Assembly (NCBI GenBank): GCA_000004985.1
Contig: GG738874.1
Source of the DNA: Naegleria gruberi
Taxonomy: Eukaryota
Length of the DNA: 64,000 nucleotides
Reading direction: 5' to 3' (one strand)
Made by a program: the position numbers and the translations under genes. Every line of letters starts with the position of its first letter. Positions within the stretch are counted from its first letter, which is position 1. Positions 43,901 through 64,000 of the stretch are shown here, piece by piece. The notes under the pieces are model-generated. The model worked only from the letters and a program-made list of their open reading frames with translations, did no database searches and was not told where the DNA came from.

Positions 43901-45434
43901 CAAGAAGTCAGTTGCTTCAAAGCTTGTTAAGTCAAAGACTGCTGAAAAGCTAGTTTCTCCAAAGAAGTCAACTACTAAAACAGATACTCCAAAGAAGGCC
44001 CAACCAAAGAAGTCAACCTCTTCAAAGCCGGCTACTTCTAAACCTGTTTCCAAACCAGTTTCACCAAAATCAACTAGTCAACAAAAGAAGCCAGCTACCA
44101 AGCCAAGCACTAAGAATGAACAACCAAAGAAGTCTTCAACAACTCCAAAGGTTGAGACAAAATATTTTGAAAAGAAGTCTGAAACTTCACCTATTAAGGT
44201 TGCCTCTGTTTCATCACCAAATATTGTCAAGTCAGTTGCTGAAAAGAAGCCAGTTACTAAACCAGCTACTCCAAAGAAGTCAACATATTCTAAGCCTGCT
44301 ACAAAGACTTCATCCTCTCCAAAGGTTACTGTAAAGTCTGTCAAAACCGTTGCTCCAAAGAAAGCTACTCCAAAGAAGTCAGAAAAGAAATTAGAGGAAA
44401 AGAAATCAAAGACTGTCTCAAACCCAAAGAAACAAGTTTCCAAGACTGAAAAGCCAAAAGCTAAACCAACTTCTCAACAAAAAAAGCAAGATACCAAACC
44501 AAAGAAAAGTTCAACAACTCCAAAGGTAGAAACAAAACCATTTGAAAAGAAGTCTGAAACTTCATCAATTAAGGTTGCTTCTGTCTCCTCATCAAAGCTT
44601 GCTGTAAAGTCTGTTTCTACTAAACCAAAGATTGCTGTTTCTCCAAAGAAACCAACCAAGAAGCGAGTTGTTGAAAAGAAGTCAACTACTAAGAAGGCTC
44701 AACCAAAGATCACTTCTCCTAAATCTGCTACCAAGACTTCCTCTCCAAAGGTTGCTGTTAAACCTCAATCAGTTACTCCTAAGTTTGCTGTAAAGCCTGT
44801 TGCTTCCAAATCAAAGATTGCTGTCAAGCCAGTTTCTCCAAAGAAACCAACCAAGAAGCCAGTTATTACAAAGCCTACTGCTCCAAAGATTTCAGGTAAA
44901 TCAAAAGTAACTCCAATGCAATCAGGTGTCAAGATTCCAATTCACAATGCTCCAATGCAAGTTGTAAAGAAGCCAGCTGGAACAGTCAAGAAGTCAAACA
45001 AGAAGTCACCAAAGAAGCCACACAAGAAGTCACAAAAGAAGAGAGATGCCAAGAAGAGTTCACAAGCCAAGCCTGCCAGACCATCTTCTCAAAATGTTAA
45101 CACTCAACAAGTTAATGCTTCTCCAGTAGTCAACGTTCCAGTCTCTGTTCAATTGCCAGCTCAACCAATTTTGGAACAACAAGAAAGATTCAACAAAAGA
45201 CAATCTTCTTGGAATCAATATGTTCAAAACACTTTCAGAAATGAAGCATCTATCAAGGGACAAATTAAGAATTATTTGCTTAAATTGAAGCAAGATGTTG
45301 AACAATTAAGAAGAGATAACACTGCTCAAAAGGAAGCTCTTCAAAGATTGAGAGCCCAACAAAGTGTTAGACCAAGTGGCGCCAACTTTAGTGAAAAGGT
45401 TCATGATTTGATTGGAGCCATCAAGAGTATTTAA
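40909..45434 (+). CDS. secreted giant polycationic Lys/Ser/Thr/Pro-rich repeat protein with N-terminal vWD-like (GDPH) domain, paralog B; exons 40909..41037 and 41145..45434
   Basis: Exon 1 has ATG 40909 and a signal peptide (MSSRDLSYSFLIVSLLLLGMLLGVHA); it ends phase 0 before GTAAGT at 41038. The 107-nt intron ends CAATAG at 41144. Exon 2 starts KCVSSGDPHLRTFSGTRFDYYSVGEYVLAE. The gene is colinear with paralog A through the vWD-like domain, the PNDxxSC...LDKxIDNK block and the C-terminal coiled coil. The repeats are SPKV/KSVKSVPVKKAQPKKSTSSKPATSKP-type. About 1472 aa. Confidence 0.7.
43116..44385 (+). repeat. internal direct repeats within paralog B: about 385-bp near-identical copies at 43116..43500 and 44001..44385 (period 885 bp), plus related partial copies
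   Basis: The DNA string aaggctcaaccaaagaagtcaacctcttcaaagccggctacttctaaacc ... aatgaacaaccaaagaagtcttcaacaactccaaaggttgagacaaaatattttgaaaagaagtctgaaacttcacctattaaggttgcctctgtttcatcaccaaat recurs with only a few substitutions. Confidence 0.8.
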
Positions 45435-45692: not shown

Positions 45693-47408
45693 TCAGTCAA
45701 CTGAATGTCGGATTCTGTAAAAGCTGTACTCATCAAGAAGGTGTTTGATATTTGGTAACAGCTTAGCCTTATTGATCTTTTTACACCCATTGATATAAAT
45801 CTTTGAAATATTATTACATTTTTTAACAATACTATTAATTGTCTTCTCAGTAATTTCACAATACTGAAGATCTATTTCTTCTAGGTTAGGTAAATTGGAA
45901 AGAGTCATACCACTCTCATCATGTATTTGATCTTGACTCAAATTTAAAAGGAAAACCTTTTTCAAACTTGTTATCATTGAAATATGCTTTGTTCCGATAT
46001 CTCCACAAGTTGAGCTTTGTGTAACAGATAATAGCTCAAGGTTAGGGAGGTTCTTAAGGTATTTGAAATCATCTCTTTCATGTCCACGTGTACAATCAAG
46101 ATACAGACTTTTAAGAGACACTAATTCTGAAATACCTTCAAACAATTGTGAATTAATCTTTGTGTGTTCTAAATCAAGGAAAGTAAGCGTTGAAGGTAGT
46201 CTATTAAAGGTCGAAAGACAAATTGAGTCGTGTCGAACAGTCAGCTTTTCAATTTTCAAGTCGCTGAGAGCTTTTAAGAACTCTGTTTGTTCATCTCCTA
46301 TTGCTACTTCAATTGAGCGTGAGTAAGAAGATTGAATTGATACATTCACTTCCTTCAATTCTTGCCAGTTTCCAATAAAATTTCCACATTTTCCAATGGA
46401 GACAGAAGATTCAATTATTAGTTTTTGAAGTTTAGGGGTTGATTTGGAAATTTTCTCCATGCTTTCAACAGAAAAATAATCTCCCAAATAAGCAAATTCC
46501 TTCATGTTTTGAATTTTACAGATGGAATCAGAAGCCTCAGCCATGCTGAAAGATTTTTGATACATGTACCCTTTCGTAGGCATGTTGGTGTATCCAAGTC
46601 TTACTATTTCAAGGTTTGGAAAATTATTTGCTCCAAACTCAACAGCACTTTCAAAGGTCTCCAATCTTTGCAAATCAATTTTGGTTACCTTTTCACAAAG
46701 TGACTTATCCTTTTCAAAAACATTTGAAATATAGGTGAGTCTTTTGGAAATTCTTTCTTCTAAATCTGTTGGTGCTTTTCTTCTATCTACAATATTCAGC
46801 CAACACATCGTTCTAAAGTAGTCGTCAATTGGTAAATTAAGACTTGTCATTATTGTTAACAAGCGGTGATATTCAGTTGCAGAACGACGATCATCAATAG
46901 AAACTACTGCAGCTCTCTTGAAAATCAATTTTGGGGCAGTGTCTGTTCCTCTGTTTGTGAACTTTCCAAAATATTGCTTATAAAACAATGATTCATCAAA
47001 TTTCAATGAATTTAAATCTATTTCTCTAGTAGGAATCACTACAGGATTCAAACAAACTTTAAATCCTGGTCCAACATAATAATCTAAAATTTCTAAAACA
47101 ATTTCTGGAGGAAGAATACTCAACAACTCTTTATCCAAACCCTTCTTCACTGGCTTTTTTGTTTCCTTGTTTGCTTGATTAGTAGTACTTGCAGTTTTAG
47201 TAATCTTCTTTCTAACTACAACCGGATGTTTTTTAGATTGTTGAGGAAGTGGATTTGATGTACGTGAGGGTGAATTTACCTTACTTGATCCGCCATAAAT
47301 AGAGACTGCCTTCTTATGAGAAGTTTCTGGTTGAAAGTTTGGCTTTGAATCTCCATCTCTTGCCTTGATAAATTTATTGTTGGGTGATGGCTCTACAGTT
47401 TTTTTCAT
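45693..47408 (-). CDS. F-box / leucine-rich-repeat (FBXL-type) protein
   Basis: Continuous ORF. The likely start is the third in-frame ATG (plus 47406-47408, context CAAAAAAAATATG); the track start at 47489 is an upstream in-frame ATG. It has a basic S/T-rich N-terminus, then an F-box (LSILPPEIVLEILDYY), then repeated LxxLxxLxL units (NLPNLELLSV, LSNLPNLEEIDLQYCEITEKTINSIVKKCNNISKIYINGCKKI). Confidence 0.7.
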   Translation of the reverse strand: MKKTVEPSPNNKFIKARDGDSKPNFQPETSHKKAVSIYGGSSKVNSPSRTSNPLPQQSKKHPVVVRKKITKTASTTNQANKETKKPVKKGLDKELLSILPPEIVLEILDYYVGPGFKVCLNPVVIPTREIDLNSLKFDESLFYKQYFGKFTNRGTDTAPKLIFKRAAVVSIDDRRSATEYHRLLTIMTSLNLPIDDYFRTMCWLNIVDRRKAPTDLEERISKRLTYISNVFEKDKSLCEKVTKIDLQRLETFESAVEFGANNFPNLEIVRLGYTNMPTKGYMYQKSFSMAEASDSICKIQNMKEFAYLGDYFSVESMEKISKSTPKLQKLIIESSVSIGKCGNFIGNWQELKEVNVSIQSSYSRSIEVAIGDEQTEFLKALSDLKIEKLTVRHDSICLSTFNRLPSTLTFLDLEHTKINSQLFEGISELVSLKSLYLDCTRGHERDDFKYLKNLPNLELLSVTQSSTCGDIGTKHISMITSLKKVFLLNLSQDQIHDESGMTLSNLPNLEEIDLQYCEITEKTINSIVKKCNNISKIYINGCKKINKAKLLPNIKHLLDEYSFYRIRHSVD

Positions 47409-48230
47409 ATTTTTTTTGAGCATGAACTTGCCTTGATGTTTTAACTTGTGCGTTACGCAAAATAGGTTTAGAATGGTAATATCACACATCTACTCTACTG
47501 TGGGTATTATTAAATCATTATTTGATTCTACAGGAACGTTCAGGAGAAATTCTTGTCCTTTCAATCCTTTGGAAAAATCATTTTCTGAAATTTCTGATAA
47601 TTCCATAATTGGAGGAGATTAATTGTACCTTTGAAACCAAAAAAAAAGAAATAAAAATAAGGAAAATGAAGAATATTATCCTGCTATTGATTTGTAAAAA
47701 GAGTATTTTTTGTTGTAATAATATTAAACTTATATTCTTTCCAATTTTCAATTCTTAAAAAAAAAGCAAAACAATCCAAAGGCTTCCAATATCATCAAGC
47801 CTAACAAAAATTACAAAGCCTTTAAATTCCTCCAAACCATCAACAACTTCATCATCGACAACTATTGATAGTCGTGATGTAATTAAATTAATGTTACAAG
47901 TTTGTAGGGGAAATACCATGATTGAAGGTTATATTTGAATGGATAGAATTATCGGAAGGTTTTTAATGAATATTCATGTGATTTCTAATGATTTTAAGAG
48001 AGGAAGAACCTGCTAGATTTAAAAAGTTGGAACATGTTGTAAATAATGCAAAACATTTTGATAATTTAATTGCCTATGATATAAATATTATTGGAAACGC
48101 AATTCAATATCAAAAAGTTAAACAAGGGTGATGATTTTATTAGATCATACTATTAAGAATGTTAAAAAAGCATCGGAGAAGTCCATTATTACTCCACACC
48201 TGAAAACCTTTTCTCAAGAATTTTCACCAT

Positions 48231-48402: not shown

Positions 48403-51400
48403 ATGCCACACCCCAAAGCAATGTTCAAAAAAAGAACACACACAACGTTTCTCTCTATAGTGTATGCAAAAATGATTAAGGCTAGAAGGAGTAACTTTTC
48501 ACTTTTAATTGGGGTTGTCTTGGTGTGCATGATTGCATTCTTGAGCATGTATGCACATGCCGGTAAGAGCTCATCAGCACCACCACGAACTGCTGCTCCG
48601 TCCGTGGCTAGAGCTCAACTACCTCCACAGCCAGTTTCAAGAGCACCTCCGATGGCACAACCAATTTCAAGACAGGCAACTCCACAACCTGTATCAAAAC
48701 CAACTCCAGTTTCTAAACCAGCTGCTGCTCAACCTATTGTTGCCAACGTTAATGAAAAGAAATCTTTCCCAAAGAAAGGAGATCCATCTTTTGTTGGACC
48801 TGTTCAACCAAAGAAACAATCATCAACACCAGCTACTTCTAAACCAGAAGTTCCAAAGGCAGGCGCCAAGAACAAGCCTGTCGTGGATATCAAGAAATCT
48901 AATGATGTTATAGTAGCAAATGTTAATGATAAGAAATCTGGTAGAAAGAAGGAAGAAACAAAACCTGAAAAGACTGTTGAACACAAGAAAGACAGTACAT
49001 CTAGCAAGATTGAAAAGAAATCTGAAGAATCAAAGCCAGACACCAAGGTGGAACACAAATTTGATGAAAAGAAACCTGATATCAAGTCAAAGACTGAAAA
49101 AAAGAAAGAAGAAAAGACATCTTCTCATAAGGATGATGTAAAGAATTCTGAAAAGAAGGCCCAGAAATCTGAACTTAAGGAAGATAAGAAATCTGAAAAT
49201 TATAATAAGATGACCAATGAGAAAAACAAGATGAATGATAAGAAATCTGATGTAAAGAAATCTTCAAAGAATTTAGAAGAAAATAAGAAGGAATCCGTTG
49301 AGCATAACAAGGCTAATAAGGATTCTGAAACTTCCAAACCAGATTCCAAAATGCAAGTCAAATCATCAGAAAAATCAAATTTAAAAAAGGATGAAAAAAA
49401 ATCCGAACATAAGGAGGATAAGAAATCTGATAAGAAATTTGATAAGAAAAAGAAATCTGATAACAAGAAGGATGAAAAGAAATCTGATGACAAGAAATCT
49501 ACCGAAATCAAATCTGATAAGACTGATCATAAGAAATCCAATAAGGATGATAAGAAATCAGAAAAGAAGGGTTCAACCGATAAGAAGAAGACTGATGGTG
49601 AAAAGTCAGATAAGAAGACTAAGGATGTAAAGTCTGATAATCCTGATTCTAAGAATACTAGTAAATCAAAGAAGTCTGTTGATAAGAAGAAGACTAACAC
49701 AAAGAAGGATAAGAAGACCAATAAGGAAGAAAAGAAATCTGTAGAAAAGAATGAAAAGAAAATAGGAAAGAAGTCTACAAATACAGCCACAAAGAAGGAT
49801 ACTACCAAGTCCACTAAGAAAACTGATAAGAAATCCTCTGAAAATAAGAAGACAAGTGGATCCAAAAAGGCCGAGCCTAAAAAGAAAACCAATTCAACCA
49901 AACCTGGAAAGAAATCTAGCACAAAGAAGCTCTCTAGTACGAAATCAAAATCTATTGGAAAGAAATCTGATATTAAGGAGGGTAACAAGAATGCTAAACC
50001 AAAGACCACTGATACCGGTAAGAAATCAGCTTCTGATAAGAAATCCAAGTCAGACAAGAAATCTGAAAAGAGCCCAACAAGTGTAAAAAAGGATAAGAAG
50101 AGTACCAAATCAAAAACTGAAAAAAAGTCAACAACTAGAATGAAATCCAAGGATGTTAAAAAGCCAGGAATGACACCAAAATCATTTGATAACATGTTTG
50201 CTCAACAAGCTAAAAAGTTGTCTCAACCAACAAGTCCAGTCAAACCAAACACAAAGTCTGACAAGAAGTCCAACAAGCCAAAGAAATCAAACACTGGTAA
50301 GAGGACCTATTCCAAGAAGAATGATAAGTCAAAAACTAGTTCCAAGAAACCTGGAAAGAAATCTAGCACAAAGAACCTAGCTGGTAAGAAATCAAAATCT
50401 ATTGAAAACAAATCTGATGTTAAATCCACAAAATCAGGAAAGAAGTCTTCAAAAAATACTGGCAAAAAATCTGGAAAGAAATCTACCAACAAGTCTGGAA
50501 AGAAATCAACTAAAAAGAGTAAGAACACTACTAAGTCTGGAAAGATATCCAATACTGGAAAGTCTGGAAAGAAATCAAAGAATGGTAATACGAAATCAGA
50601 TAAGAAGACCAAGAAATCAGAAACTGGTAAGAAATCAAAAAATTCCAAAGGAAAGAAGGATAGTAAGAAATCAAAGAAATCTACCAAAAAATCAGTAACG
50701 TCAACTAAAACAACTAGTAAGAAATCTAACAAGTCTGGAAAGAAGGCTTCTAAGAATACTGGCAAGAAATCAGGAAAGAAATCCAATAAGCCTGGAAAGT
50801 CAAAGAAGATACCCAAGAAATTAGGTAAGAAGGGTTCTAAAAAGGCTAACCAACCAAGCAAATCCAGTAACAAGTCTGGAAAGACCTTAAAGAATGGTAA
50901 ACCAAAGAAATCCAATACTGGAAAGACATTAAAGAATGACACATCAAAGAAATCAACTAAAAAGGGCAAGAACGGTACTAAGTCTGGAAAGAAATCAAAA
51001 TCTGGTAAGAAGACTAAGAAATCAGAAACTGGAAAGAATTCTGGAAAGAAATCAAATACTGGAGAGAAAAACAACAATTCTTCTAAGAATAATAAGAAAA
51101 AGAACTTGAATGGAAAGAAGGACAAGTCCAAAAACAAATCAACTAATTTAAAGAATAATAAGAACACCAATAAGAAGAGTGCAAACAAATCAAGGAATAA
51201 CAAGAACATGACTGAACAAAAGGAAGAATCTGAATCATCTTTTGGCACACCAGATTCTGAGGAGAGAGAAACTCCATATTCTGAAGATGGACCAATAATA
51301 TTATTAAGAGATGATAACATCTTATCTAATTCTTACAAACAAAGAGGAATTGAAATTGAAGATGAACCAGTTAAAGTAGTTGAAAAGAATAGTATGAAGG

Positions 51401-52608
51401 TCAAGCAAGTCGATAGTGAAATTGAACTATCTAGTGATCAAGATGAAGAAAGGCCACTCCAAATTTCTAAGAGGCAAGTTGAAAAGTCAATTCAAAGAAA
51501 CGATTTTGAAGACAATGAGGAACCAAAGGTCTCTAAATCTAAACAAGACGCTGAAAAATCCGAAGTTGAAAAGACCATTCAAAGAAAAGAGAAACACCAA
51601 GTTGAAGATGAAGAAGAAGCCCCTCAAAAGAAGTCTGTAAAAGGAAAGCATGATAAGAAATCTGGAAAGAAATTGAAGAATGAAAGATCAAAGAAGTCTG
51701 GAAAGTCTGTTGCTAAGAAAGGCAACAGGTCTGGAAAGAAATCAAATAATTCCACAGGAAAGAATGGCAATAAGAAATCAAAGAAATCTGGAAAGAACAC
51801 CAAAACAACAAGTAAGAAGTACGGAAAGAAGCTCACTAAAAAGAATACCAAGAAATTAGGTAGGAAGGGTTCTAAGAAATCTGTAATTAAACCAAAGAAA
51901 TCCAATCTTTCTTATGGTAAGGATTCTGGAAAGAAATCTTCCAAACAATCCAGAAAAGTGGAATATGAAGATGTTGAATATCCAATTCAAAGAAACCAAA
52001 AAAAAAGAAAACAACAAGTTGATGAAAAACCTCCTCAAAAGAAGTCTAGAAATATTTCAAAGAGACAGCAGCAAGATGAAGAAAGATTTATTCTACAATA
52101 TGAAAAGAAATCTGGACACAGAAAGGTTAATAAGAAATCATCCAAGCAAGAATTCGAAGAAAACCGAGCTCCAAAGAGGCAATATGTTGAATTTGATGAA
52201 GAAGTTCCTCAAGAGAATTCCAAATCTGGAATGGATATCTTGACCTATAGAACAAATCCAATCAATATCAATAACCATCAACCTCAAAAAAGAATGATCA
52301 ATAGAATTACCCCTCAAACAGTATCTCAATTAAGACCAATCGAATCAAATGCCCCAGCTATTACTAATCCACAAATTTATCATCCATTTGTTAGACCAAA
52401 TAACTTTGTTACCACTGCTCCACCAGCTATTGCTCGACCAAATAACTTTACTCCTCAAACACAATCTCATGATGAAACTATGAATCTGCAAAATATTGGT
52501 ATCAATCTTGTCACCAACAATCCAACTCCTACAGCTCCAAATCATAATGTTAACAGAGCCAGAGTTGTACAAGCTTTGAGAAAATTGATTGCCTCTATGA
52601 AGAAATAA
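48403..52608 (+). CDS. giant Lys/Ser-rich low-complexity protein with N-terminal signal-anchor and conserved C-terminal module (family C/D, member C)
   Basis: Single 1401-codon ORF; in-frame ATGs at 48403 and 48472 (the latter with an AAAAATG context, MIKARRSNFSLLIGVVLVCMIAFLSMYAHAG). After a Pro/Ala/Gln-rich stretch come about 1000 aa of KKS/DKKS/GKKS repeats. It ends in a roughly 110-aa non-repetitive module (...INRITPQTVSQLRP...NLQNIGINLVTNNPTPTAPNHNVNRARVVQALRKLIASMKK) shared with the next gene. Confidence 0.6.
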   Translation: MPHPKAMFKKRTHTTFLSIVYAKMIKARRSNFSLLIGVVLVCMIAFLSMYAHAGKSSSAPPRTAAPSVARAQLPPQPVSRAPPMAQPISRQATPQPVSKPTPVSKPAAAQPIVANVNEKKSFPKKGDPSFVGPVQPKKQSSTPATSKPEVPKAGAKNKPVVDIKKSNDVIVANVNDKKSGRKKEETKPEKTVEHKKDSTSSKIEKKSEESKPDTKVEHKFDEKKPDIKSKTEKKKEEKTSSHKDDVKNSEKKAQKSELKEDKKSENYNKMTNEKNKMNDKKSDVKKSSKNLEENKKESVEHNKANKDSETSKPDSKMQVKSSEKSNLKKDEKKSEHKEDKKSDKKFDKKKKSDNKKDEKKSDDKKSTEIKSDKTDHKKSNKDDKKSEKKGSTDKKKTDGEKSDKKTKDVKSDNPDSKNTSKSKKSVDKKKTNTKKDKKTNKEEKKSVEKNEKKIGKKSTNTATKKDTTKSTKKTDKKSSENKKTSGSKKAEPKKKTNSTKPGKKSSTKKLSSTKSKSIGKKSDIKEGNKNAKPKTTDTGKKSASDKKSKSDKKSEKSPTSVKKDKKSTKSKTEKKSTTRMKSKDVKKPGMTPKSFDNMFAQQAKKLSQPTSPVKPNTKSDKKSNKPKKSNTGKRTYSKKNDKSKTSSKKPGKKSSTKNLAGKKSKSIENKSDVKSTKSGKKSSKNTGKKSGKKSTNKSGKKSTKKSKNTTKSGKISNTGKSGKKSKNGNTKSDKKTKKSETGKKSKNSKGKKDSKKSKKSTKKSVTSTKTTSKKSNKSGKKASKNTGKKSGKKSNKPGKSKKIPKKLGKKGSKKANQPSKSSNKSGKTLKNGKPKKSNTGKTLKNDTSKKSTKKGKNGTKSGKKSKSGKKTKKSETGKNSGKKSNTGEKNNNSSKNNKKKNLNGKKDKSKNKSTNLKNNKNTNKKSANKSRNNKNMTEQKEESESSFGTPDSEERETPYSEDGPIILLRDDNILSNSYKQRGIEIEDEPVKVVEKNSMKVKQVDSEIELSSDQDEERPLQISKRQVEKSIQRNDFEDNEEPKVSKSKQDAEKSEVEKTIQRKEKHQVEDEEEAPQKKSVKGKHDKKSGKKLKNERSKKSGKSVAKKGNRSGKKSNNSTGKNGNKKSKKSGKNTKTTSKKYGKKLTKKNTKKLGRKGSKKSVIKPKKSNLSYGKDSGKKSSKQSRKVEYEDVEYPIQRNQKKRKQQVDEKPPQKKSRNISKRQQQDEERFILQYEKKSGHRKVNKKSSKQEFEENRAPKRQYVEFDEEVPQENSKSGMDILTYRTNPININNHQPQKRMINRITPQTVSQLRPIESNAPAITNPQIYHPFVRPNNFVTTAPPAIARPNNFTPQTQSHDETMNLQNIGINLVTNNPTPTAPNHNVNRARVVQALRKLIASMKK

Positions 52609-52714: not shown

Positions 52715-54805
52715 ACGTTCATTACACATTCACTTGAATGGCTATCGTATCTTAAACCAGTAGCACAACCAACTGTTGAAAAGAAATCTGTTGCCAAGAC
52801 TGACAAGAGTCAAGTCAAATCAGCAACTGAAAAGAAGAAGGCCGATGTAACACCAAAAGAAATTGCTAAACCAACAAAGAAGCCAGTTGATACCAAGCCA
52901 GCTAAACCTGTTGTCGATACCAAGAAATCTGATGCCAAGAAGTCAACTGATAAATCTGGTAAGCCAAAGACTGGTGCCAAGAAAACTACTGGTAAGAACA
53001 CTGATGCCAAGAAGTCAACTAATAAGAAGACTGATGCAAAGACAGGAAAGTCTGCTACTGCCAAGAAGACTCCAGCTATGGCAACCAAGTCTGTTCAAAA
53101 TAAGACTATTGCCAAGAAATCTGATGCCAAGAAGTCAACTGATAAAACTGGAAAGCCAAAGACTGCTACCAAGAAGACTGCCAAGAAAACCATTGATAAG
53201 GCAAAGTCTGGTGTAAAGACTAATGCCAAGAAGACTGGTTTGAAGGGAAAGTCAACAAAGAAAGATGTCACCAAGTCAACTAAAAAGTCTGACAAGAAGC
53301 CATCTGCCAAGAAGGATAAGTCTGCCAAGAAGTCATCTGATAAGACTGTAAAATCAAAGAAATCATCTGAAAAGAAAACCGGTAAAAAATCCAAGAAAAC
53401 TGGTGTAAAGAAGACTGATAAGAAGGGAAAGAAGGATAAAAAGCCAACTAAAAAGACTCATAAGAAAACCAAGTTAAGTGCATTGACTAGAGCTAGAGGC
53501 CACGTCTTTAAGAAAAAGAAGAAGAATTTGACAACTGAAAACCCATCCCAATCATCCCAATCTCCAATTCTTGAACATATTCCAATGGAATCAGATGGTT
53601 TGTCAAGAAGACAAAGATATGAACGTTCACTTAAAGAAAAATCAAAGAAATCCGAAAACAATGAAGAGAATGTCCAAAAGGAATCTGAAGTTATTGCAAC
53701 TCCTAGTTCTGAAGACATTTCCTCACCAATTAATTCTGAAAGAGTAGCTACTTCTGAAGATTCACCGGTCCAAAACAATTCCGAAGAAAGATCTTCCTCA
53801 AACGATAACATCTCATCCAATTCTGTTAATCAAAGAGGACTTGAAATTGAAGATGATGTTAAAGTTGAAAAGAAACAACGTGTTGGAGTCAAGCAAGTTG
53901 ATGAAGAAATTGAATCTAAGGAAGAAATCAAGTCTGACGAAAAGAAATCTGCTAAGGTTTATGGAGAGTCTGATAAGAAACCTAGAAAGGATGAATCTGA
54001 AGAAGAATTGGAAGAGCCAACCTCTGTCCAAAAGAAATCCAAGAAGTCAACTAAGAAATCAAGAAATCTTACGAAGAAGACTGGTAAGAAGGGTGAGAAA
54101 TCAACCAAAAAGACTGCTCCAAAGAAGAATAGCAATAAGACAGGTAAGCAGACAGGTAAGAAGGGTAAGAAATCTGGAAACAAATCAAGAAAGGTTGTTA
54201 AGAAATCTGGAAACAAGTCAAACAAGAATGAAAAGAAACCAACCAAGAAGACTGATAAGAAGGGTAAGAAATCTGGAAACAAGTCTAACAAGGGTGCTAA
54301 GAGATCCACTAAGAAATCAGGAAAGGGTGAAAAGAAATCCATGAATACTCAAAATAGAAGAATCAATAGAATTGCTCCTCAATCAGTAACTCAATTCAAA
54401 CCAATGGAAATTGTTGATACTCCAGCTATCAGTAAGGCACAAATTTCCCAACCAGTTATCACTCAACAAGATGTCGAACCAACTACTGGTACTCAAAGAC
54501 AACTTCCAACTGGTGCAATGAATGTTCAAAACATTGACATTAATCTCATCACAAACAATCCAACTCCTACTGCTCCAGATAGTCCATCTCCATCCGAGAT
54601 TGCATTGGTCAGAAGATTTTTGGCTAATAGAAGAAGATTGGAAAAGAAGCAAGCTCCACAACAACCAAAGGAAGAACCAATGAATGTTTCTAATGTTGTC
54701 ACTGTTGGTATGCCTCAACCTGCTCAAAAGCCAACCAAACAAAATATTGATAGAGCTAAAGTTGCTGCTGCTTTGAGAAATTTGATTGCTTCTGTTAATA
54801 AATGA
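52715..54805 (+). CDS. Lys-rich low-complexity protein, member D of the C/D family; 5' end and start codon undefined (possible partial tandem duplicate)
   Basis: The frame is open from 52715 (after TGA) to TGA 54803-54805. There is no ATG before 53078 and no signal-peptide exon in the 107 bp separating it from gene C. The body is AKKSDAKKSTDKTGKPKT repeats. The C-terminal module (...INRIAPQSVTQFKP...NVQNIDINLITNNPTPTAPD...RAKVAAALRNLIASVNK) is homologous to that of gene C. Confidence 0.45.
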   Translation, partial: TFITHSLEWLSYLKPVAQPTVEKKSVAKTDKSQVKSATEKKKADVTPKEIAKPTKKPVDTKPAKPVVDTKKSDAKKSTDKSGKPKTGAKKTTGKNTDAKKSTNKKTDAKTGKSATAKKTPAMATKSVQNKTIAKKSDAKKSTDKTGKPKTATKKTAKKTIDKAKSGVKTNAKKTGLKGKSTKKDVTKSTKKSDKKPSAKKDKSAKKSSDKTVKSKKSSEKKTGKKSKKTGVKKTDKKGKKDKKPTKKTHKKTKLSALTRARGHVFKKKKKNLTTENPSQSSQSPILEHIPMESDGLSRRQRYERSLKEKSKKSENNEENVQKESEVIATPSSEDISSPINSERVATSEDSPVQNNSEERSSSNDNISSNSVNQRGLEIEDDVKVEKKQRVGVKQVDEEIESKEEIKSDEKKSAKVYGESDKKPRKDESEEELEEPTSVQKKSKKSTKKSRNLTKKTGKKGEKSTKKTAPKKNSNKTGKQTGKKGKKSGNKSRKVVKKSGNKSNKNEKKPTKKTDKKGKKSGNKSNKGAKRSTKKSGKGEKKSMNTQNRRINRIAPQSVTQFKPMEIVDTPAISKAQISQPVITQQDVEPTTGTQRQLPTGAMNVQNIDINLITNNPTPTAPDSPSPSEIALVRRFLANRRRLEKKQAPQQPKEEPMNVSNVVTVGMPQPAQKPTKQNIDRAKVAAALRNLIASVNK

Positions 54806-54810
54806 ATTCT

Positions 54811-55974
54811 TTAAAATTGACAATTTATCATTAAATCTGTTAGTTTCTGAGCTATCATTGATTGATAGCATCTTTTCAATGTTGTCTTCTCGAATAAACA
54901 ATTAGAAATATAGTGGTTATTTTTCTCGTTACTATTCACTACATATTTAACCACTTGTGAAATGTCAAAATCAGATATCGACTTGATAATGTGATATTCT
55001 GACACATTTCCATTACCTGTTCGTAAATAGTTAGATATAATTGTATTGACAACATCCCTCTCGTGATAATCGTTTACAATTTGTTCAAGTTCTGGCATTA
55101 ATTGAGCTTCAAAAGGTCTTTCAAATTTGATATAATTCCTCAACTTTTTCATCATTAAATCTGGTTTGGTAAAGAGAAGAATTATTCTCGTATTCGAATG
55201 ATTTCCAATCAATTCCTTGTAGAGTTTCAAACTTTCGTCCATTCTATTAACCTTCTCATCTCCATAACATGTTTGATTAAATTCTGAAAGAGAAACTACA
55301 TAAATCAAAACTGAAACTTGATTTTCCAAACAATATCTCCACTTTCGTCTTTCATGAATTTTTCCACCTGCTGTCACAAATGTCAATCTATTCTTATTAA
55401 AAATAACACTATAATCAATTATTCCAGAAGATCCTCCCTTAATATAAATATCTGGAATAAACCTCTCTCGATTCTTAATTTTTGACACAAAAATGTCAAC
55501 ATTCTCAAATAAATTCAATGTATCCTGATTAGTTCTATAAATCTTTCTAAATCTATCATCATTCCACAATGCAACAAGTGCATGATCATCAAAATTTCCA
55601 TTCGGTACCTTTTCATTAATAATAAACTCAACTGTCCTATCACTCGATGACGATGACGATGAGTACAAAATTTGTTGAATGATAATTCGTGAAATTGTAT
55701 TCGTATCGACGTGATAGAAAGAGTCGGAAGTTTTATCGATGGAAGTAAAATGTTCCTTCTTTCTATTTTCATATCGAATCATTTCACAGATGGTTGTCTT
55801 TCCACTTGATGTGTTTCCAAGGAGGACGAATCTCTTTTCTTCCACGTCGTCATTAGCAAGATTATTCGAATGGTTATTCGAAGGAGAAGACGAAATAAAC
55901 GTGTTTTGAATTGCGTTACTGTTAACGACGTTGGCGTGTTGCTGTTGTTGAAGTGTTGAGAGCTTCCCACCCAT
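54811..55974 (-). CDS. divergent heterotrimeric G-protein alpha-subunit-like protein with non-canonical catalytic residues
   Basis: ATG in an AAAAAAAAATG context. MGGKLST is an N-myristoylation consensus. The P-loop is LLGNTSSGKTT. The block PDIYIKGGSSGIIDYSVIFNKNRLTFVTAGGKIHERRKWRYCLENQVSVLIYVVSLSEF...VNRMDESLKLYKELI...ILLFTKPD is colinear with G-alpha switch I / switch II / NKxD regions (DVLRTRVKTTGI...DVGGQRSERKKWIHCF...NRMHESMKLF...ILFLNKKD). The switch-II Gln is Lys, the switch-I Arg is absent, and NKKD is TKPD. 387 aa. Confidence 0.75.
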   Translation of the reverse strand: MGGKLSTLQQQQHANVVNSNAIQNTFISSSPSNNHSNNLANDDVEEKRFVLLGNTSSGKTTICEMIRYENRKKEHFTSIDKTSDSFYHVDTNTISRIIIQQILYSSSSSSSDRTVEFIINEKVPNGNFDDHALVALWNDDRFRKIYRTNQDTLNLFENVDIFVSKIKNRERFIPDIYIKGGSSGIIDYSVIFNKNRLTFVTAGGKIHERRKWRYCLENQVSVLIYVVSLSEFNQTCYGDEKVNRMDESLKLYKELIGNHSNTRIILLFTKPDLMMKKLRNYIKFERPFEAQLMPELEQIVNDYHERDVVNTIISNYLRTGNGNVSEYHIIKSISDFDISQVVKYVVNSNEKNNHYISNCLFEKTTLKRCYQSMIAQKLTDLMINCQF

Positions 55975-56728: not shown

Positions 56729-58698
56729 ATGTCCATCGGAAAGTTAATACAGTCATCAGCCTTGTTAAGTCAAGTTGCTGGACAGGCTAATCAATTGTTT
56801 GATTCAATACTTTCCTATTTATTAATTAATTTAGGTTCTTCATCATCTTTATCAACAACAACTATAGCACAACAAGATACAAACTTGTTGCACAATATCA
56901 TCAATAACAACAACAATATTATTGGATCATCCTTTGGAACAACAACCAATGATATAAATAATAGGACTGAAGAAATAATTTTGGTGAGAGGAGTAACACT
57001 TACAATGGATATTACCTTCTTGTTGGTTCCTTTAATAATCTCGATTGCCATTCCGATCCTCTATGAAATGCTTGTTGTTCGACAATTCCTGGATAAGATT
57101 AAAAAGAAGTTTAAAAGAAAGGCAAGAACACGTTCAACCTATTACGATAAGTTTGGTCAATATCAAGATAGTATTGAGGCATTTGCACTTCAAGATATTG
57201 AAAAGGAGGAGAATGCTAGAAGCACATTGTTTTGGAAATTGGTTTGCTTTTGTGGATGGAGAAATTTCAAAAACTTTTTCTTTACTACTCCATTAGGTGC
57301 AGATAATTCATTGGCAGCAATCAATGAGAATGGAAGCTTTGTAATGTATCATTCAACACCCTTTCAATTATTGGATAGAATGTGTTCCAGTTGCTGCACA
57401 ACTGTCAGTACATCATCCAGTGAAGATCTCGCACCACTCTTTCCATCAGAAAACAATGTGAAAATTCGATCTGTTACATCCAAAAGCGTTCATCAATATA
57501 ACATTTCATGCTGGATTTCTAGTTCAATACTCTTGCTAATACGTATTGGTAATTTCGTATTGGCAGTAGTGACAGCTGTCTACTTGGGAAAGGATGAAAT
57601 ATTCAAGAAGGGCAATCACAATCCTTGGTTCGAATATACCAAATATCTTACCAACAATACTTTCAATCTCTTCCTTGTCTATTCATCACTCGTGCTATTC
57701 TACCATATTATTCTAATGATGACTGCAGGTGTTCTTGTGATCAAGAAGAGAAAACCAACAAGTGGTAACACAGCTACAGTTACTTTTCCATATCATGACA
57801 TTATGCCAAGAAATTTGGAAAAAGTTTTAGAGGTAATTGGTAACATGTTGTGGTTCTTATCAGAGATGAACCTTGTAACTTCTGCTCTTGTTTCTATTGG
57901 GTATGTTATTATTGCTATTGTATAATATTTACCATTAACCTGAAAATTATTTTGAATAATTATTATAATTATTAATGAACTTGCTGAATGATTATCTTAA
58001 GTTTTTGGACAATCATCATACCAACAGGAAATTTCCCAACGGATAGAATTAACTTTATCATTATATCATCACATGGATTGACATTTATTGGAAGTTTTAT
58101 AGAGGCCTTCATGTCAGACTTTTATTTTAAATTCTGGCATGTCTTCATCATTGGCCTTTATTCACCAATTTATCTTCTCTATGTTATTGGATTGAAAGAA
58201 GGTGGATACATTACATCATTCCCATACGGAAATCTTCTCGATTATGACAAGGGAGATTTAGCTTTGGCTGGACATTTCACATTCATCATTGGCATTTATT
58301 TACTCTTCGCCTTGTTCTGGCTCGTCTTGACAGTTTTTAAAAAGTTGATGGTCATCAAGTTTTGTGCCAGTTATGCCTTCCCTTCAACACTTGGACATCG
58401 TTCTTCTATTCCTCATAGTGCATCATCAGGATCATTGGAAAGAAGAGCCAGTTCGACCCCATACTATCAATCCACTTTTAAAGTTGGTTCTCCCGATAGA
58501 ACAATTTCACCAACTCTTCTCCAACAACATGCTCGTTCCATCAGTTTATCGAGTAGTGGTTATGGTGATGAAGAGGAGGAACAATTTACATCACTCCCAG
58601 CCAATTCAACCCTACAAACAACACCTACTCCATCCTCTACAGCTCAGCATCACAAGAGAACCTTTTCTTATGGCAGTACAAGCCATAGCCAGCAATAA
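56729..58698 (+). CDS. seven-transmembrane-helix membrane protein, unknown family; 2 exons 56729..57900 and 58002..58698
   Basis: Exon 1 ends in phase 2 (...SIG) before GTATGT at 57901. The 101-nt intron ends CTTAAG at 58001; the join gives ...ALVSIG|GFWTIIIPTG. The roughly 622-aa product has an Asn-rich N-terminus. TM1 is about residues 95-117; a roughly 150-aa loop follows; then come six further hydrophobic helices. The C-terminal roughly 110 aa are S/T/P-rich. Confidence 0.6.
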
Positions 58699-59302: not shown

Positions 59303-60889
59303 ATGTCAAGCGATAACACTAATGGTGGAACAACCTCAAGTGGTCCAGTTCTCTCCCAATCGGCAACTGATGTCTCATCTCCAACCGAAATTAAAGCCAA
59401 AAAGAAGGTTGTCATTAATGCTGAACCAACCCACGGTCCAATGTCAGTAGCTTCCAACACTACAAAAACCTCTGCCTCTGCTAAAGGAGCTCTCAAAGTC
59501 AATACATGTTGTGGTGTTGTTGAACTGACACCTATGAAATTAGCCTGTTTGATTGGTATGGCTATTACTGTCGTTGCCTTTGTTGCTTTGGGTGTTATTT
59601 CAATTACAAGCTTTGTTTATTCGAGCAGTAAGAAAATTGACCTTTTAATTACCTATGCAGATATCAGATATTACAGATCACAAGCTATGGCTGCTGTCAA
59701 GATGGCTGCTTATTCTAATGTATGTTTTATAATTATTTGATCAAACTGAACTGTTATTTCCACAAATTAACAATGTTGTCAACCTTTTAACAATGATGAC
59801 AACTAACATTAATTGATAACCAATAATTTAATGATGACAATTCAATAGGATTTTAATCAATACTATGATATCTACACTTCCAACAATAACAATTTAACAA
59901 ACCTCATCACGTCGATCAGAACAATTTTCCAAAATGATGCCACAGCCAATGCCCTCTTCACCAAGACCACTCTGACAGCAAAGAGTAAATTGGAAGGTTT
60001 TAATACCTATATCTTTGGTTTATTGAGACAAGGCAGTTATCAACAAGATGCTATTGACACAGTGAATAGTCAAGATTATAAGGACACTGATAATCTTTTC
60101 TATTCTGGTTTAACTTCCCTATTGAACTATGTCGTTACTTCGGAACAATCCAAAGACAATAGTGTCATTGCTTCCAACCTAGTTCAATTGGTAATTATTG
60201 TGATTGCCTTGGTGATTGTTTTGCCAGTTTTAGTATTCGTCTTTACTTATGCCATCAATCGTGACTCACTCTATTTGGAAAAGATTAGACGTGCCAATTC
60301 CATCATGTTATTGGATACAATTGCTGATAGTAATTTACGTTCTCTCTTCAAAGCTCATTGTGAAAAGGAAAAGTCAACTGAAAACTTTTTACTCTTAGAA
60401 AAGATTCACAACTATAAGGCCATGTGTGAAAGAGTCGACGATTTAAATATGAAATTATATGGAGATAGCACAATTTCTGATACTGCTAGTGCTTCTTCAA
60501 AGACTGATTCAACTGCCACTGCTGAGTCAGTTCCAAAACTCAAGAAGGAACAAGTTGCCAAGTATGAAAAAGAGCTCAATGAAATGGAAGGTAAAAAGTA
60601 TGAATTGGCCTTTGAAATTTACTCCTATCACTTGGATATCAACGGTGACATGGCTGCCAACGTAACCAAGAGCAAGTGTGACAAGGTTAAGGTTCAACTC
60701 GATAATTACAATACCAAACAAATCGAAAGTTTACCACTCGATTTATTCAAACAAATTGAAAAGGAAGTTTGTTTGACCATGATGGACACTCACAATAGAT
60801 TCAAATCATCCATTGCCTTCCAAAAGGAAATGAAAATTCACAAGCTTAACGTTGAAAAGATTAAGGCTAAGCATAAGAATAAGTTTTAA
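59303..60889 (+). CDS. membrane-anchored RGS domain protein, paralog 2; exons 59303..59719 and 59849..60889
   Basis: ATG at 59303. Exon 1 is MSSDNTNGG...CCGVVELTPMKLACLIGMAITVVAFVALGVISITSF (a TM anchor) and ends ...AYSN in phase 0 before GTATGT at 59720. The 129-nt intron ends CAATAG at 59848. Exon 2 has a second TM (LVQLVIIVIALVIVLPVLVFVFTY). The RGS core is FKAHCEKEKSTENFLLLEKIHNYKAM. About 485 aa, and colinear with the gene at 30545..32174. Confidence 0.8.
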
Positions 60890-61267: not shown

Positions 61268-63985
61268 TTATTGGGTATTGGCAAAGAGGTTGGAAACACT
61301 TCTATTGTTTGAGTAGAGGAGTGGATTGTTTTTCAAGTGTCTGTGATGTTTGTCATTGAGCAAATAGGTCTTGACAATTCCCTTTCCTTTCACATCAACT
61401 TCTCTCTCTTCAAAATCATATCCCAAATCGAAAACTCTTTCATAAGTTGATCTGGAGATTTGAATTCGTCCATTCTTTGAAGTGGATTCCATTCGAGAAG
61501 CAATATTGATGGTATCACCCCATAAATCGTAGGCAAACTTTTTCATTCCAATCACTCCAGCAACAACTGATCCTGTATTAATTCCAACTCGAATATTGAT
61601 TTGTTGAGGTGGTGGAGAGGATGATTTCACCTTTAATTCATTATCTGTTTCCTTAACAACCTCCTCTTGTTCATTATTATCAACAGATTTGAGTCGATTT
61701 GAATTGAAATCATTTATCACTCCAAATGTTTCAATTGCAAATTTTAAAACTCTTTCAGGATGATCACTTGTTGCAGCTCCAGGTAATCCACCCACTGCAA
61801 AATAGGCATCTCCAATTGTTTTGATCTTTTCCAAATCATATTTTTCAGTCAACATGTCAAATCCATTCACAATTGAGTTCAACATCATTACTAAATCAGT
61901 GGCTTGCATATTACTACTTATGGCTGTAAATCCAACCATATCTGAAAAGAAACAAGTGATATCATCCAATTTTTCAGCAATGAATGTATGTCCACTTTTC
62001 AATCTTGAAGCAACACTTGTTGGTAAGATATTCTTCAAGAGATTATCCGATTTTTGTTTCTCTTCACTCAATAAGGCATTTTGTTTCTTTTCAGAAGTTA
62101 AATCTTTCATTGTGACAATCAGAATATTTCTCATTGAACCTCTTTCACCTTGAATTTTGACAGTGAAGAGTGTTATTTTGCAAGGGAATTTGGTTTGATT
62201 TCTTCTGATACAATCTAATTCAACAATTTCACATTTTCCATTTCCTTCTTCACTCTCCTTGCTGGATTGTTTCAATTGAACATCTTCATCATCTTGATCT
62301 TCATCCTTCTTATCAGAATCTTTTCCACTCTTTTTGAAAATATACTTGATACACTTGTTGAGTTCATCTTGGTGTGTTGATTCAACCAATTGTGAAATTG
62401 AAGTTCCCAAAACATCAATTGGTTTCATTCCAAACATTTTCAATGCAGAATAATTCAAAAATTCAATTTCATGATTCTCATTACAAATAATACTTCCTTC
62501 AACACTTGAATTGAAAACATTCTTCAAATCAGAAATGGATGAAGCGGAAGATGATGATGATTTGTCCTTCTTTTTCATTCTTGTACTCAATGAATTGGTA
62601 TTGTTATAGAGGATAAAGTTTCTCAATGTTTCATTCCTCTCTAAAACTTCAACTGGAATATATTGTGACATTAATCGAAGTGAATGTAATTGACCACAAT
62701 AATTGGAGTAGATGATATACATCAGAAAGAAGAAAACCATACACCCAACAATTTCCACACCTGCAAAGCTTATTACTACATCATAAGAGGGAGCTGTAGA
62801 GGAGGAAATGAATGCCTTGATGAAAATTGTGAACTTGTTACTCAATGCTAGTGCCATTCTCATAGCAAGGTTATGCCGTATCCCTAAATCAGCTATTGGA
62901 AGAAGAATACCTTTTGGAGTTGCTGCCTTTTGAAGAGAATTTTGCTTTCTGGAGTCAGTCAATAATTGAGGAACCAGGGTCATGTAATCATTCAAAAGTG
63001 TTTCCAAACCGATGCAGTACATCATATTTGTTTCTATTGTAAGAGTCATATTATTTTCTTGCAAATAGTCAGAGCAATTAGATGAAACGCCATGATTAAT
63101 AAGTGAGTCAACACCTGGATACATTCCTAAAATTGGTCTGGTACCAACAGAGGCATCCCCATAAATTAATCTTGACCACATACTACTAAGAGTTGGTAAT
63201 CTATTTGTTGCTCTGTCAAAGAGTACATTGAAATTTGTAACAGTATTGAATAATCTTGGATCACCATATGTAACATTTCTTTTGAAATTAACTGCCAATG
63301 GAGAAATATTGTTTGAAATTTCACTTGCAACAAAGTAGGTCATTACTTCACCTGTGTTAAATGCGATTCTCTGTACAGATGTTGCAGCTTGAATACTTAA
63401 TCTTACATTGTTCATCACTCTACCAGCAGTTTGGGCATTGAAGTCGCTTTCATAATAGAACATGGCAATACTTGCACATGTAAATAAGGTAATCAGCGAA
63501 ATCAAAATAATTGTTGAAATGTTTGATTTCATTTTGGCAAGTGAGAAAGTATTGTCAGCATTATTGGCAGTATCAGTTGTTTTGTTGTTGAGAGAGTGAA
63601 ATATTTTTCCAATCACATCTTTGCTCAAATGTTTTTCATATATTTTCACAATTTTTGTCATATGACTCATTTCAAATATCATATAACTCAAATAAGCAAT
63701 ACTGATCAAAAAGAATGCAACTAGAACTGCACCTGAATAATACACCAAATTTTGAGTTGTTAGATCTACTGCATCTGTTGATCTATCAAGATAACGGGCG
63801 CAAAAAGTATCAAAAGCCAGTGAAGCAGTTTCTCTATTCGCAAACAGGAACATGAAATTGTAATTCTTCAATGGGTGAAAGTACAAATCAGTTGCTGCAA
63901 TATTTAGCAATAGAGTTTGATAGGACGGATCATAGTTATGGCTTGAAATATTTGTCAACAAGTTAATTGGAAAGGTGTCAATCAT
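61268..63985 (-). CDS. receptor-type class III adenylyl cyclase: 2-TM-flanked extracellular sensor domain + third TM + PAS domain + cyclase catalytic domain (N-terminus may extend beyond the window)
   Basis: A continuous 905-codon ORF reaches the window edge; the upstream 15 nt remain in frame with no stop. Hydrophobic helices lie at about residues 85-105, 155-177 and 400-425, bracketing a roughly 220-aa hydrophilic domain. A PAS-like segment follows (...EGSIICNENHEIEFLNYSALKMFGMKPIDVLGTSISQLV). The cyclase core has FSDMVGFTAISS (the metal Asp) and EKIKTIGDAYFAVGGLPG / FAYDLWGDTINIASRMES. The substrate-specifying Lys and Asp predict ATP as substrate. Confidence 0.85.
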   Translation of the reverse strand: MIDTFPINLLTNISSHNYDPSYQTLLLNIAATDLYFHPLKNYNFMFLFANRETASLAFDTFCARYLDRSTDAVDLTTQNLVYYSGAVLVAFFLISIAYLSYMIFEMSHMTKIVKIYEKHLSKDVIGKIFHSLNNKTTDTANNADNTFSLAKMKSNISTIILISLITLFTCASIAMFYYESDFNAQTAGRVMNNVRLSIQAATSVQRIAFNTGEVMTYFVASEISNNISPLAVNFKRNVTYGDPRLFNTVTNFNVLFDRATNRLPTLSSMWSRLIYGDASVGTRPILGMYPGVDSLINHGVSSNCSDYLQENNMTLTIETNMMYCIGLETLLNDYMTLVPQLLTDSRKQNSLQKAATPKGILLPIADLGIRHNLAMRMALALSNKFTIFIKAFISSSTAPSYDVVISFAGVEIVGCMVFFFLMYIIYSNYCGQLHSLRLMSQYIPVEVLERNETLRNFILYNNTNSLSTRMKKKDKSSSSSASSISDLKNVFNSSVEGSIICNENHEIEFLNYSALKMFGMKPIDVLGTSISQLVESTHQDELNKCIKYIFKKSGKDSDKKDEDQDDEDVQLKQSSKESEEGNGKCEIVELDCIRRNQTKFPCKITLFTVKIQGERGSMRNILIVTMKDLTSEKKQNALLSEEKQKSDNLLKNILPTSVASRLKSGHTFIAEKLDDITCFFSDMVGFTAISSNMQATDLVMMLNSIVNGFDMLTEKYDLEKIKTIGDAYFAVGGLPGAATSDHPERVLKFAIETFGVINDFNSNRLKSVDNNEQEEVVKETDNELKVKSSSPPPQQINIRVGINTGSVVAGVIGMKKFAYDLWGDTINIASRMESTSKNGRIQISRSTYERVFDLGYDFEEREVDVKGKGIVKTYLLNDKHHRHLKNNPLLYSNNRSVSNLFANTQ

Positions 63986-64000
63986 ATTTTGGGTATACTT

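Follow-up and report, generated by a model that had tools for sequence, protein, structure and literature searches.

A gene on the minus strand of Naegleria gruberi contig GG738874.1 (NCBI GenBank assembly GCA_000004985.1) was analysed within a stretch of 64,000 nucleotides that is referred to here as the window. The gene occupies positions 61268-64000 at the edge of the window. The window probably carries the last 910 codons of a gene for a multi-pass, receptor-type adenylate cyclase that combines a helical outward sensor head, a PAS domain, a coiled coil and a class IIIa catalytic output. The domain order of the whole protein, as predicted from the closest database relative (P0001 from N. 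gruberi, 1470 amino acids) and from paralogues, would be TPR_TmcB region, TM1, ecto1, TM2, linker, TM3, ecto2, TM4, juxtamembrane segment, PAS, coiled coil and cyclase, where TM denotes a transmembrane helix and ecto1 and ecto2 denote the two outward loops. Some paralogues have several TM helices ahead of the TPR_TmcB domain, and the paralogue P0002 has several extra TM helices at its N-terminus.

Reading frame and relation to P0001

The open reading frame (ORF) listed at 61268..63985 on the minus strand has 905 codons. Translation of the same frame meets no stop codon up to base 64000, which leaves it open where the window ends. P0001, which bears the database name 'adenylate/guanylate cyclase', shares 88% identity with the ORF over 908 residues aligned gaplessly. 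The alignment with P0001 already includes the five codons that precede the first Met (KYTQN); position 63985 is therefore not the true start and the gene runs past the window. By comparison with P0001, about 562 N-terminal codons are predicted to be located beyond base 64000, so that the visible part would be the last two-thirds of the gene. An initial annotation made from the sequence alone had allowed that the N-terminus may continue past the window edge, and the open frame and the alignment bear this out. The N-terminal part of P0001 beyond the counterpart of the window contains the TPR_TmcB domain (PF25474), TM1 and most of the loop 1 of about 230 residues. No protein identical to the window cyclase was found in the protein collection that was searched, for five neighbouring ORFs no exact match turned up either, and no second copy of the gene or N-terminal part elsewhere in the window was found by tblastn. 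The G+C content of the window is 31-39%. The overall extent of the gene and its C-terminal end are as follows.

61268..64000 (-): visible part of the gene, 910 codons and the stop codon (61268-61270); gapless 88% identity to P0001 residues 563-1470
61271..61354 (-): short C-terminal tail, which departs from the P0001 gene model in its last 8 residues

Class III cyclase domain and coiled-coil linker

The catalytic domain was identified by a Pfam scan as Guanylate_cyc (PF00211) at residues 670-877 (E=1.6e-52, 178.2 bits against a cut-off of 21.9), and the match spans profile positions 3-182 of 183. The residue numbers of all Pfam and hydropathy matches are counted from the first Met of the ORF. 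The nearest solved sequences of the catalytic domain are the class IIIa cyclases AC9, AC8 and AC5 and the mycobacterial Cya, with E values down to 5e-64. The features of this part of the gene are listed below; the six catalytic residues were assigned by alignment with AC9 and by family conservation.

61979..62095 (-): coiled-coil linker that ends in the cyclase-transducer-type motif EEKQKSDNLLKNILPTSVASRLKSG (motif 61991-62065); weak HNOBA tail match, motif in 24/26 family members, weak match to soluble guanylate cyclase beta1 (3hls)
61355..61978 (-): class III cyclase homology domain, interrupted by about 35 residues of low complexity; Guanylate_cyc E=1.6e-52, alignment with C1/C2 of AC9, family conservation
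61940-61942 and 61808-61810 (-): metal-binding (catalytic) Asp residues
61820-61822 (-): specificity Lys
61526-61528 (-): specificity Asp
61505-61507 (-): transition-state Asn
61493-61495 (-): transition-state Arg

FFSDMVGFT and TIGDAY align with both metal-binding Asp motifs of AC9 C1. EKIKTIG aligns with EKIKTIG of mammalian AC9 C2, and YDLWGDTINIASRME aligns with YDIWGDTVNIASRMD of AC9 C2. In the latter region, YDLWGDT aligns with YDIWGDT of AC9 C2, which is the motif of the specificity Asp, and TINIASRME aligns with the AC9 C2 segment that bears the transition-state Asn and Arg. The specificity Lys is found in 21/21 and the specificity Asp in 18/19 of the family members that have a residue at the position. 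Across the family, the sole substitution at the first four catalytic positions is one Val at the specificity Asp, and at the transition-state positions the Asn is replaced once by Ile and the Arg once by Lys. The other rows at the catalytic positions are gaps that come from incomplete gene models.

All six catalytic residues are on a single chain in the window cyclase. In class III cyclases this arrangement implies a homodimer with two sites, and the enzyme is therefore expected to pair with itself, to form two active sites and to use ATP as substrate. Judged from these residues, the window enzyme very probably makes cyclic AMP (cAMP). The same Lys and Asp pair had been read in the initial annotation as specifying ATP in a class III cyclase that makes cAMP. 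That reading stands, since the two residues are correctly aligned with AC9 C2 and the alignment with AC9 and with the family leaves no sign of the misalignment that would have overturned it; the proposed search with the PF00211 profile likewise gave the match described above.

It is very improbable that the gene encodes a guanylate cyclase, a dual-specificity cyclase or a dead pseudo-enzyme. The database name of P0001 is non-committal in this respect, and the catalytic domain is interrupted by the low-complexity insertion of about 35 residues. However, guanylate cyclases have Glu and Cys at the two specificity positions, whereas Lys and Asp occupy them here, and both metal-binding Asp residues and the Asn/Arg pair are present and conserved in the family. 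The ORF is also intact, and about 99% identity to P0001 in the cytosolic part points to strong constraint.

The linker in front of the catalytic domain shows a weak HNOBA match at 633-662 that covers the last 30 profile positions, and the HNOBA tail is a coiled coil in front of cyclase domains. The linker is also weakly similar to the coiled coil of soluble guanylate cyclase beta1 (3hls). The motif that precedes the cyclase domain across the family is E-E-K-K-K-S-E-x-L-L-x-N-I-L-P-x2-V-A-x-R-L-K-x-G, which we take to be the cyclase transducer element of class IIIa and guanylate cyclases.

Membrane topology

A Kyte-Doolittle scan of the ORF identified hydrophobic helices at 86-104, 158-176 and 403-430, and a hydrophilic loop of 226 amino acids lies between the latter two. 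The segments of the membrane part are as follows.

63731..64000 (-): C-terminal 90 residues of ecto1 (outward loop 1), cut by the window edge; aligns to P0001 563-652
63674..63730 (-): TM2, AVLVAFFLISIAYLSYMIF; Kyte-Doolittle mean 2.36, 19/19 residues identical to P0001
63515..63673 (-): cytosolic linker between TM2 and TM3, 53 residues; 0/53 differences from P0001
63458..63514 (-): TM3, TIILISLITLFTCASIAMF; Kyte-Doolittle mean 2.31, runs into the first long helix of ecto2 in the AlphaFold2 model
62780..63457 (-): ecto2 (outward loop 2), 226 residues, predicted all-helical bundle
62696..62779 (-): TM4, long hydrophobic helix of 28 residues; Kyte-Doolittle mean 2.43, 13/28 residues differ from P0001
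62531..62695 (-): juxtamembrane cytosolic segment; family consensus motif, no HAMP

The cyclase domain must be cytosolic because it uses ATP, and one TM helix lies between it and ecto2; ecto2 therefore faces away from the cytosol. Counting the TM helices in this way places the linker of 53 residues in the cytosol and ecto1 on the outward side. In P0001, TM1 is at 403-421 and TM2 is at 653-671, and the piece of ecto1 aligns between them. The first 85 residues of the ORF from the Met are thus the end of a second, different outward loop.

The three helices had been placed in the initial annotation at about 155-177 and about 400-425 with an earlier one before them, and these positions match the hydropathy scan. 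The hydrophilic domain of about 220 amino acids that it had described as extracellular and bracketed by helices corresponds to the loop of 226 residues. Chance does not account for the domain, helix and motif matches. The extent of the module was not captured, as the earlier helix is TM2 of a core of four TM helices that has two different outward loops.

Four N-x-S/T sequons and two conserved Cys (codons 63074-63076 and 63014-63016) lie in ecto2. In the family, a Cys pair is conserved in each of the loops, and N-x-S/T sequons average about 3.5 in the loops versus 0.5 in the linker. The linker contains the motif IYEKHLSKDVIGKIFHSL (63590-63643), whose family form is K-L-x4-I-x-K-D-x2-G-K-I-Y/F-H-x-L, where the Gly is invariant and the Lys nearly so. 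The juxtamembrane motif at 62606-62680 is kept in the family as L-R-x-M-x-x-Y-x-P-x-E-x2-D/E-x-N-E-x-L-R-N-F. The Cys pairs, the sequons of the loops and the conserved motifs of the linker and the juxtamembrane segment would be consistent with outward loops.

The loops could instead project into the lumen of an internal compartment, or the orientation could be reversed, so that the protein is not a cell-surface receptor. We regard this arrangement as improbable. The orientation does rest on hydropathy and modelling, and the positive-inside bias is weak. However, the catalytic domain has to be cytosolic and is one TM helix away from ecto2, and the Cys pairs and the abundance of sequons in the loops are consistent with a position on the exoplasmic or lumenal side. 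The lumenal face is also topologically equivalent to the outside.

Fold of the sensor module

The segment TM3-ecto2-TM4 was modelled by AlphaFold2 from an alignment of 27 sequences with the window sequence first. The model is wholly helical, with a predicted local distance difference test score (pLDDT) of 85.8 and a predicted template modelling score (pTM) of 0.75. TM3 extends in this model into a helix of about 65 residues, which is followed by two further long helices, and the last long helix leads into TM4. The whole module of P0001 from TM1 to TM4 (614 residues) was modelled with a pLDDT of 84.2 and a pTM of 0.82, and loop 1 in that model is helical with a beta hairpin. The predicted architecture of ecto2 is an antiparallel helical bundle that is flanked by and continuous with two TM helices, which is what characterises four-helix-bundle sensors.

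The initial annotation had likened the topology to that of bacterial Cache/CHASE sensor cyclases. For the sensor domain this likeness is not supported. Cache, CHASE, 4HB_MCP, NIT and HAMP gave no Pfam match in the window protein at E<=1 nor in the 26 sensor modules at E<=5, and no Cache or CHASE was found in the 26 full-length members at E<=1e-3. The modelled loop is all-helical, as against the alpha/beta PAS-like fold of those domains. Membership by sequence in Cache, CHASE, 4HB_MCP or NIT was accordingly rejected from the Pfam and PDB profile searches. A Cache domain has been reported in Naegleria in a single bacterial-type adenylate cyclase (Upadhyay et al., PMC4822843), which agrees with the family of the window cyclase being non-Cache. 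An internal duplication, in which loop 1 and loop 2 would be repeats of each other, was also rejected (profile-profile probability 0.2%). The Foldseek matches to Tweety-homologue (TTYH) proteins are non-significant and represent a loose architectural analogy only.

Several observations weigh against a receptor with a four-helix-bundle type of sensor head. The loops appear to have no sequence homology to any known sensor family. Pfam gave no membership in the four-helix-bundle sensor families (4HB_MCP, TarH, NIT and PilJ), the profile search against PDB sequences gave nothing relevant, and neither loop is covered by any Pfam family among the 26 full-length members; even at E<=5 the sensor of these members drew no Pfam model at all. 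The AlphaFold2 models rest on 26-27 sequences. The Foldseek search of the whole sensor module against the PDB gave no significant global match, and the four-helix bundle is a generic fold, as bundles designed de novo and talin score nearly like bacterial sensors. HAMP, which is usual in bacterial receptors of this type, was not found between TM4 and the PAS domain in the Pfam scan at E<=1. The TM helices show a weak positive-inside signal in their flanks. Lastly, the N-terminal third of the protein, which is outside the window, may be relevant to regulation.

PAS domain

The intracellular PAS-like fold that had been noted upstream of the cyclase is borne out by a Pfam match of PAS_9 at 496-630 (E=1.5e-14, 54.5 bits against a cut-off of 27). 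The PAS fold match has an E value of 3.9e-5, and PAS scores 24.1 bits against a cut-off of 22.6.

62096..62530 (-): PAS domain with a low-complexity acidic and Lys-rich insertion; PAS_9 E=1.5e-14, PAS E=3.9e-5

The nearest solved sequence is the heme-PAS domain of EcDOS, which is weakly similar (E=1e-3). The LOV motif of NCRFLQ type was not seen in the sequence of the window cyclase, and the candidate heme His of the window PAS is Gln in P0001. The LOV and heme types of PAS were rejected: the motif is absent, EcDOS is only weakly similar, and P0001 lacks the candidate His.

The PAS domain may add an intracellular input to the enzyme. A different division of labour is conceivable although doubtful, where the PAS domain is the real sensor (of redox, oxygen or a metabolite) and the module of four TM helices and two loops only anchors, assembles or targets the enzyme, for example to the flagellum or the contractile vacuole. 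The well-conserved PAS domain occurs in 24/26 members, the solved sequence closest to it is the weakly similar (E=1e-3) heme-PAS oxygen sensor, and the loops have no recognisable ligand-binding family, all of which would suit such a role. However, all members from Naegleria to Acrasis have kept both loops, each about 200-230 residues long, confidently folded in the models and with a conserved Cys pair, which is costly for a mere anchor. The replacement of the candidate heme His by Gln in P0001 also argues against it, and so does the continuity of the ecto2 helices with TM3 and TM4, as in signalling receptors.

Divergence from P0001

The differences between the window cyclase and P0001 are distributed in blocks, as listed below.

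ecto1: 26/90
TM2, linker and TM3: 0/91
ecto2: 58/226
TM4: 13/28
juxtamembrane segment: 1/55
PAS: 4/146
coiled coil: 0/36
cyclase domain: 0/213

Between 26% and 46% of the positions differ in the outward loops and TM4, as against 0-3% in TM2, the linker and TM3 and in the cytosolic part (minus the last 23 residues). The three cytosolic low-complexity linkers have zero indels. The loops exceed the cytosolic positions of equal family-variability class in differences (Fisher p=1e-9, 2e-6 and 2e-4). Weaker constraint alone is insufficient to explain the pattern because the excess persists within the variability classes. TM4 diverges like the loops, whereas TM2 and TM3 are identical. This suggests a block-wise history, for example by recombination or gene conversion, no less than it suggests selection acting on the exposed surfaces. 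No plausible donor was found among the sampled paralogues, where the second-best ecto2 identity is 41%.

A more far-reaching proposal, which we consider unlikely, is that the module of four TM helices and two loops is a receptor head specific to Heterolobosea, without a sequence relative in other groups. Its outward surfaces would change fast from one close Naegleria lineage to another, with the signalling core held constant, under diversifying selection or by exchange of allelic cassettes for variable cues such as prey, competitors or kin, and the fusion with TmcB would serve as a 'Rosetta stone' for stand-alone TmcB controlling a cyclase.

Heterolobosean family

The family profile was built from the loop and TM region of the window, P0001 and P0002 and was run on 1.84 billion representative proteins. 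The search identified 62 proteins at E<=1e-3, and the loop and TM module of the window is collinear with the profile. All the matches that are named by organism (15/15) are from Heterolobosea, namely N. gruberi, N. lovaniensis, N. fowleri, Willaertia magna and Acrasis kona. Five further matches were looked up and all are from metagenome assemblies. A metagenome scan for relatives of the gene gave 27-41% identity only. Of the 26 full-length members, 25 have TPR_TmcB, 24 have PAS_9 and 21 have Guanylate_cyc.

The window cyclase is thus an ordinary member of a catalogued, uncharacterised Naegleria family that is already in public databases under generic names. At least 81 membrane cyclases of Naegleria have been counted in a pangenome study (PMC9928731). 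The literature search found no paper on this domain architecture or on the fold of the loops.

Proposed mechanism

The enzyme would function as a homodimer that produces cAMP. Both loops would lie outside or in a lumen and would be packed into one helical sensor head. A stimulus at the head might displace TM4, as in bacterial four-helix-bundle receptors. The shift of TM4 would then pass through the juxtamembrane helix to the PAS domain and on to the coiled coil with the transducer motif. The register of the two catalytic domains would be altered in this way, and the rate of cAMP synthesis would change.

Comparison with known systems

The bacterial four-helix-bundle receptors (Tar/Tsr, PcaY, PilJ, NarX/NarQ, TorS and the NIT domain of NasR) are the closest in working to the sensor half, without membership by sequence. 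The family of the window cyclase differs from them by having no sequence or profile similarity to them and no HAMP. Each chain has two different bundles with their own TM pair, whereas the bacterial receptors have one bundle per subunit, and the window cyclase adds short helices and a disulfide-type Cys pair. The host is also eukaryotic and the output is a cyclase, whereas the output of the bacterial receptors is a kinase or chemotaxis.

The class IIIa cyclases (AC5, AC8 and AC9; Cya/Rv1625c type) have the same metal, specificity and transition-state positions and the transducer motif ahead of the domain. The mammalian C1/C2 pair is a pseudo-heterodimer, whereas the window enzyme is expected from its residues to be a two-site homodimer as Rv1625c is. 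The class IIIa cyclases have 6 or 2x6 TM helices, in contrast to the 4 TM helices, two large loops and inserted PAS domain of the window family. Soluble guanylate cyclase and the PAS- or HNOBA-linked cyclases share the route from PAS through the coiled coil to the cyclase, to which the weak matches to the HNOBA tail and soluble guanylate cyclase beta1 correspond. The window enzyme differs from soluble guanylate cyclase in its ATP-type specificity residues, its membrane-bound state and the lack of H-NOX.

The kinetoplastid receptor cyclases (GRESAG4 type) and Dictyostelium ACG resemble the window cyclase in their general plan, which joins an outward sensor through a membrane span to a class III cyclase. 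Both have a single TM helix and an alpha/beta ectodomain, and the ectodomain of the kinetoplastid receptor cyclases is like a periplasmic binding protein. The window family has four TM helices, two helical loops and PAS instead. The likeness to kinetoplastid receptor cyclases that had been proposed is therefore not upheld, as the visible part of the protein has three TM helices, P0001 has four and the loops are helical. The contrast drawn with the cyclases of social amoebae concerned the wrong organism, since the best match is from N. gruberi (88%) and the named family members are all heterolobosean.

Dictyostelium TmcB is related through the TPR_TmcB domain, which is upstream of TM1 in P0001 and 25/26 family members, in the region outside the window. 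Dictyostelium TmcB is not known to have a cyclase domain. No named Dictyostelium proteins were found among the 62 profile matches to the loop region. TmcB has been reported in cAMP signalling during macrocyst (sexual) development of Dictyostelium (PMC12750705, PMC8516963).

Neighbouring genes

The ORF at 59990-60889 (+) has a hydrophobic helix and an RGS domain (E=1.9e-5). It adjoins the cyclase gene and the 3' ends of the two converge. Upstream of it, the ORF of 145 amino acids at 59303-59740 (+) has a hydrophobic stretch and may be an earlier exon of the same gene. A G-protein alpha subunit is encoded by the ORF of 387 amino acids at 54811-55974 (-) (Pfam G-alpha E=1.2e-43), about 5 kb from the cyclase gene. 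Naegleria has numerous G-alpha and TM-RGS proteins (PMC9283941), and the proximity of G-alpha and the cyclase may be chance for this reason.

The adjacent ORFs at 56729-57925 and 57988-58698 (+) are multi-pass membrane ORFs that may be exons of one gene; the former has a weak CASP_dom match (E=8e-5) that is below the cut-off. The adjacent ORFs at 36707-40426 and 41172-45434 (+) encode proteins of 1239 and 1420 amino acids with a Lys content of 21% and an abundance of Ser, Thr and Pro. About 275 residues at the N-terminus form a domain common to the two (38% identity, E=2.5e-53), as is a short coiled coil at the C-terminus. Low-complexity ORFs that are rich in Lys (22-26%) are found at 48403-52608 and 53078-54805 (+), where only the C-terminal 74 or so residues are common to both (38% identity, E=1.3e-7) and the region has a strong AT skew of 0.30-0.45. 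The ORF of 598 amino acids at 45693-47489 (-) has C-terminal leucine-rich repeats, and its Pfam matches are all at or below the curated cut-offs.

Significance

The finding adds a further member to a catalogued family and leaves the current picture unchanged. For Naegleria, cAMP is suspected to act in encystation, although this has not been demonstrated (PMC5055082, PMC4399386). By modelling, a fold and a topology are now assigned to the previously unannotated sensor part of a large cyclase subfamily, and the specificity residues suggest that the family is adenylate-specific throughout. If the unlikely proposal of a heterolobosean receptor head were true, the TmcB fusion would suggest that the stand-alone TmcB proteins in Dictyostelium cAMP signalling act via the control of a cyclase. 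The clear domain boundaries for chimeras and truncations make the subfamily, including the members from N. fowleri, usable experimentally.

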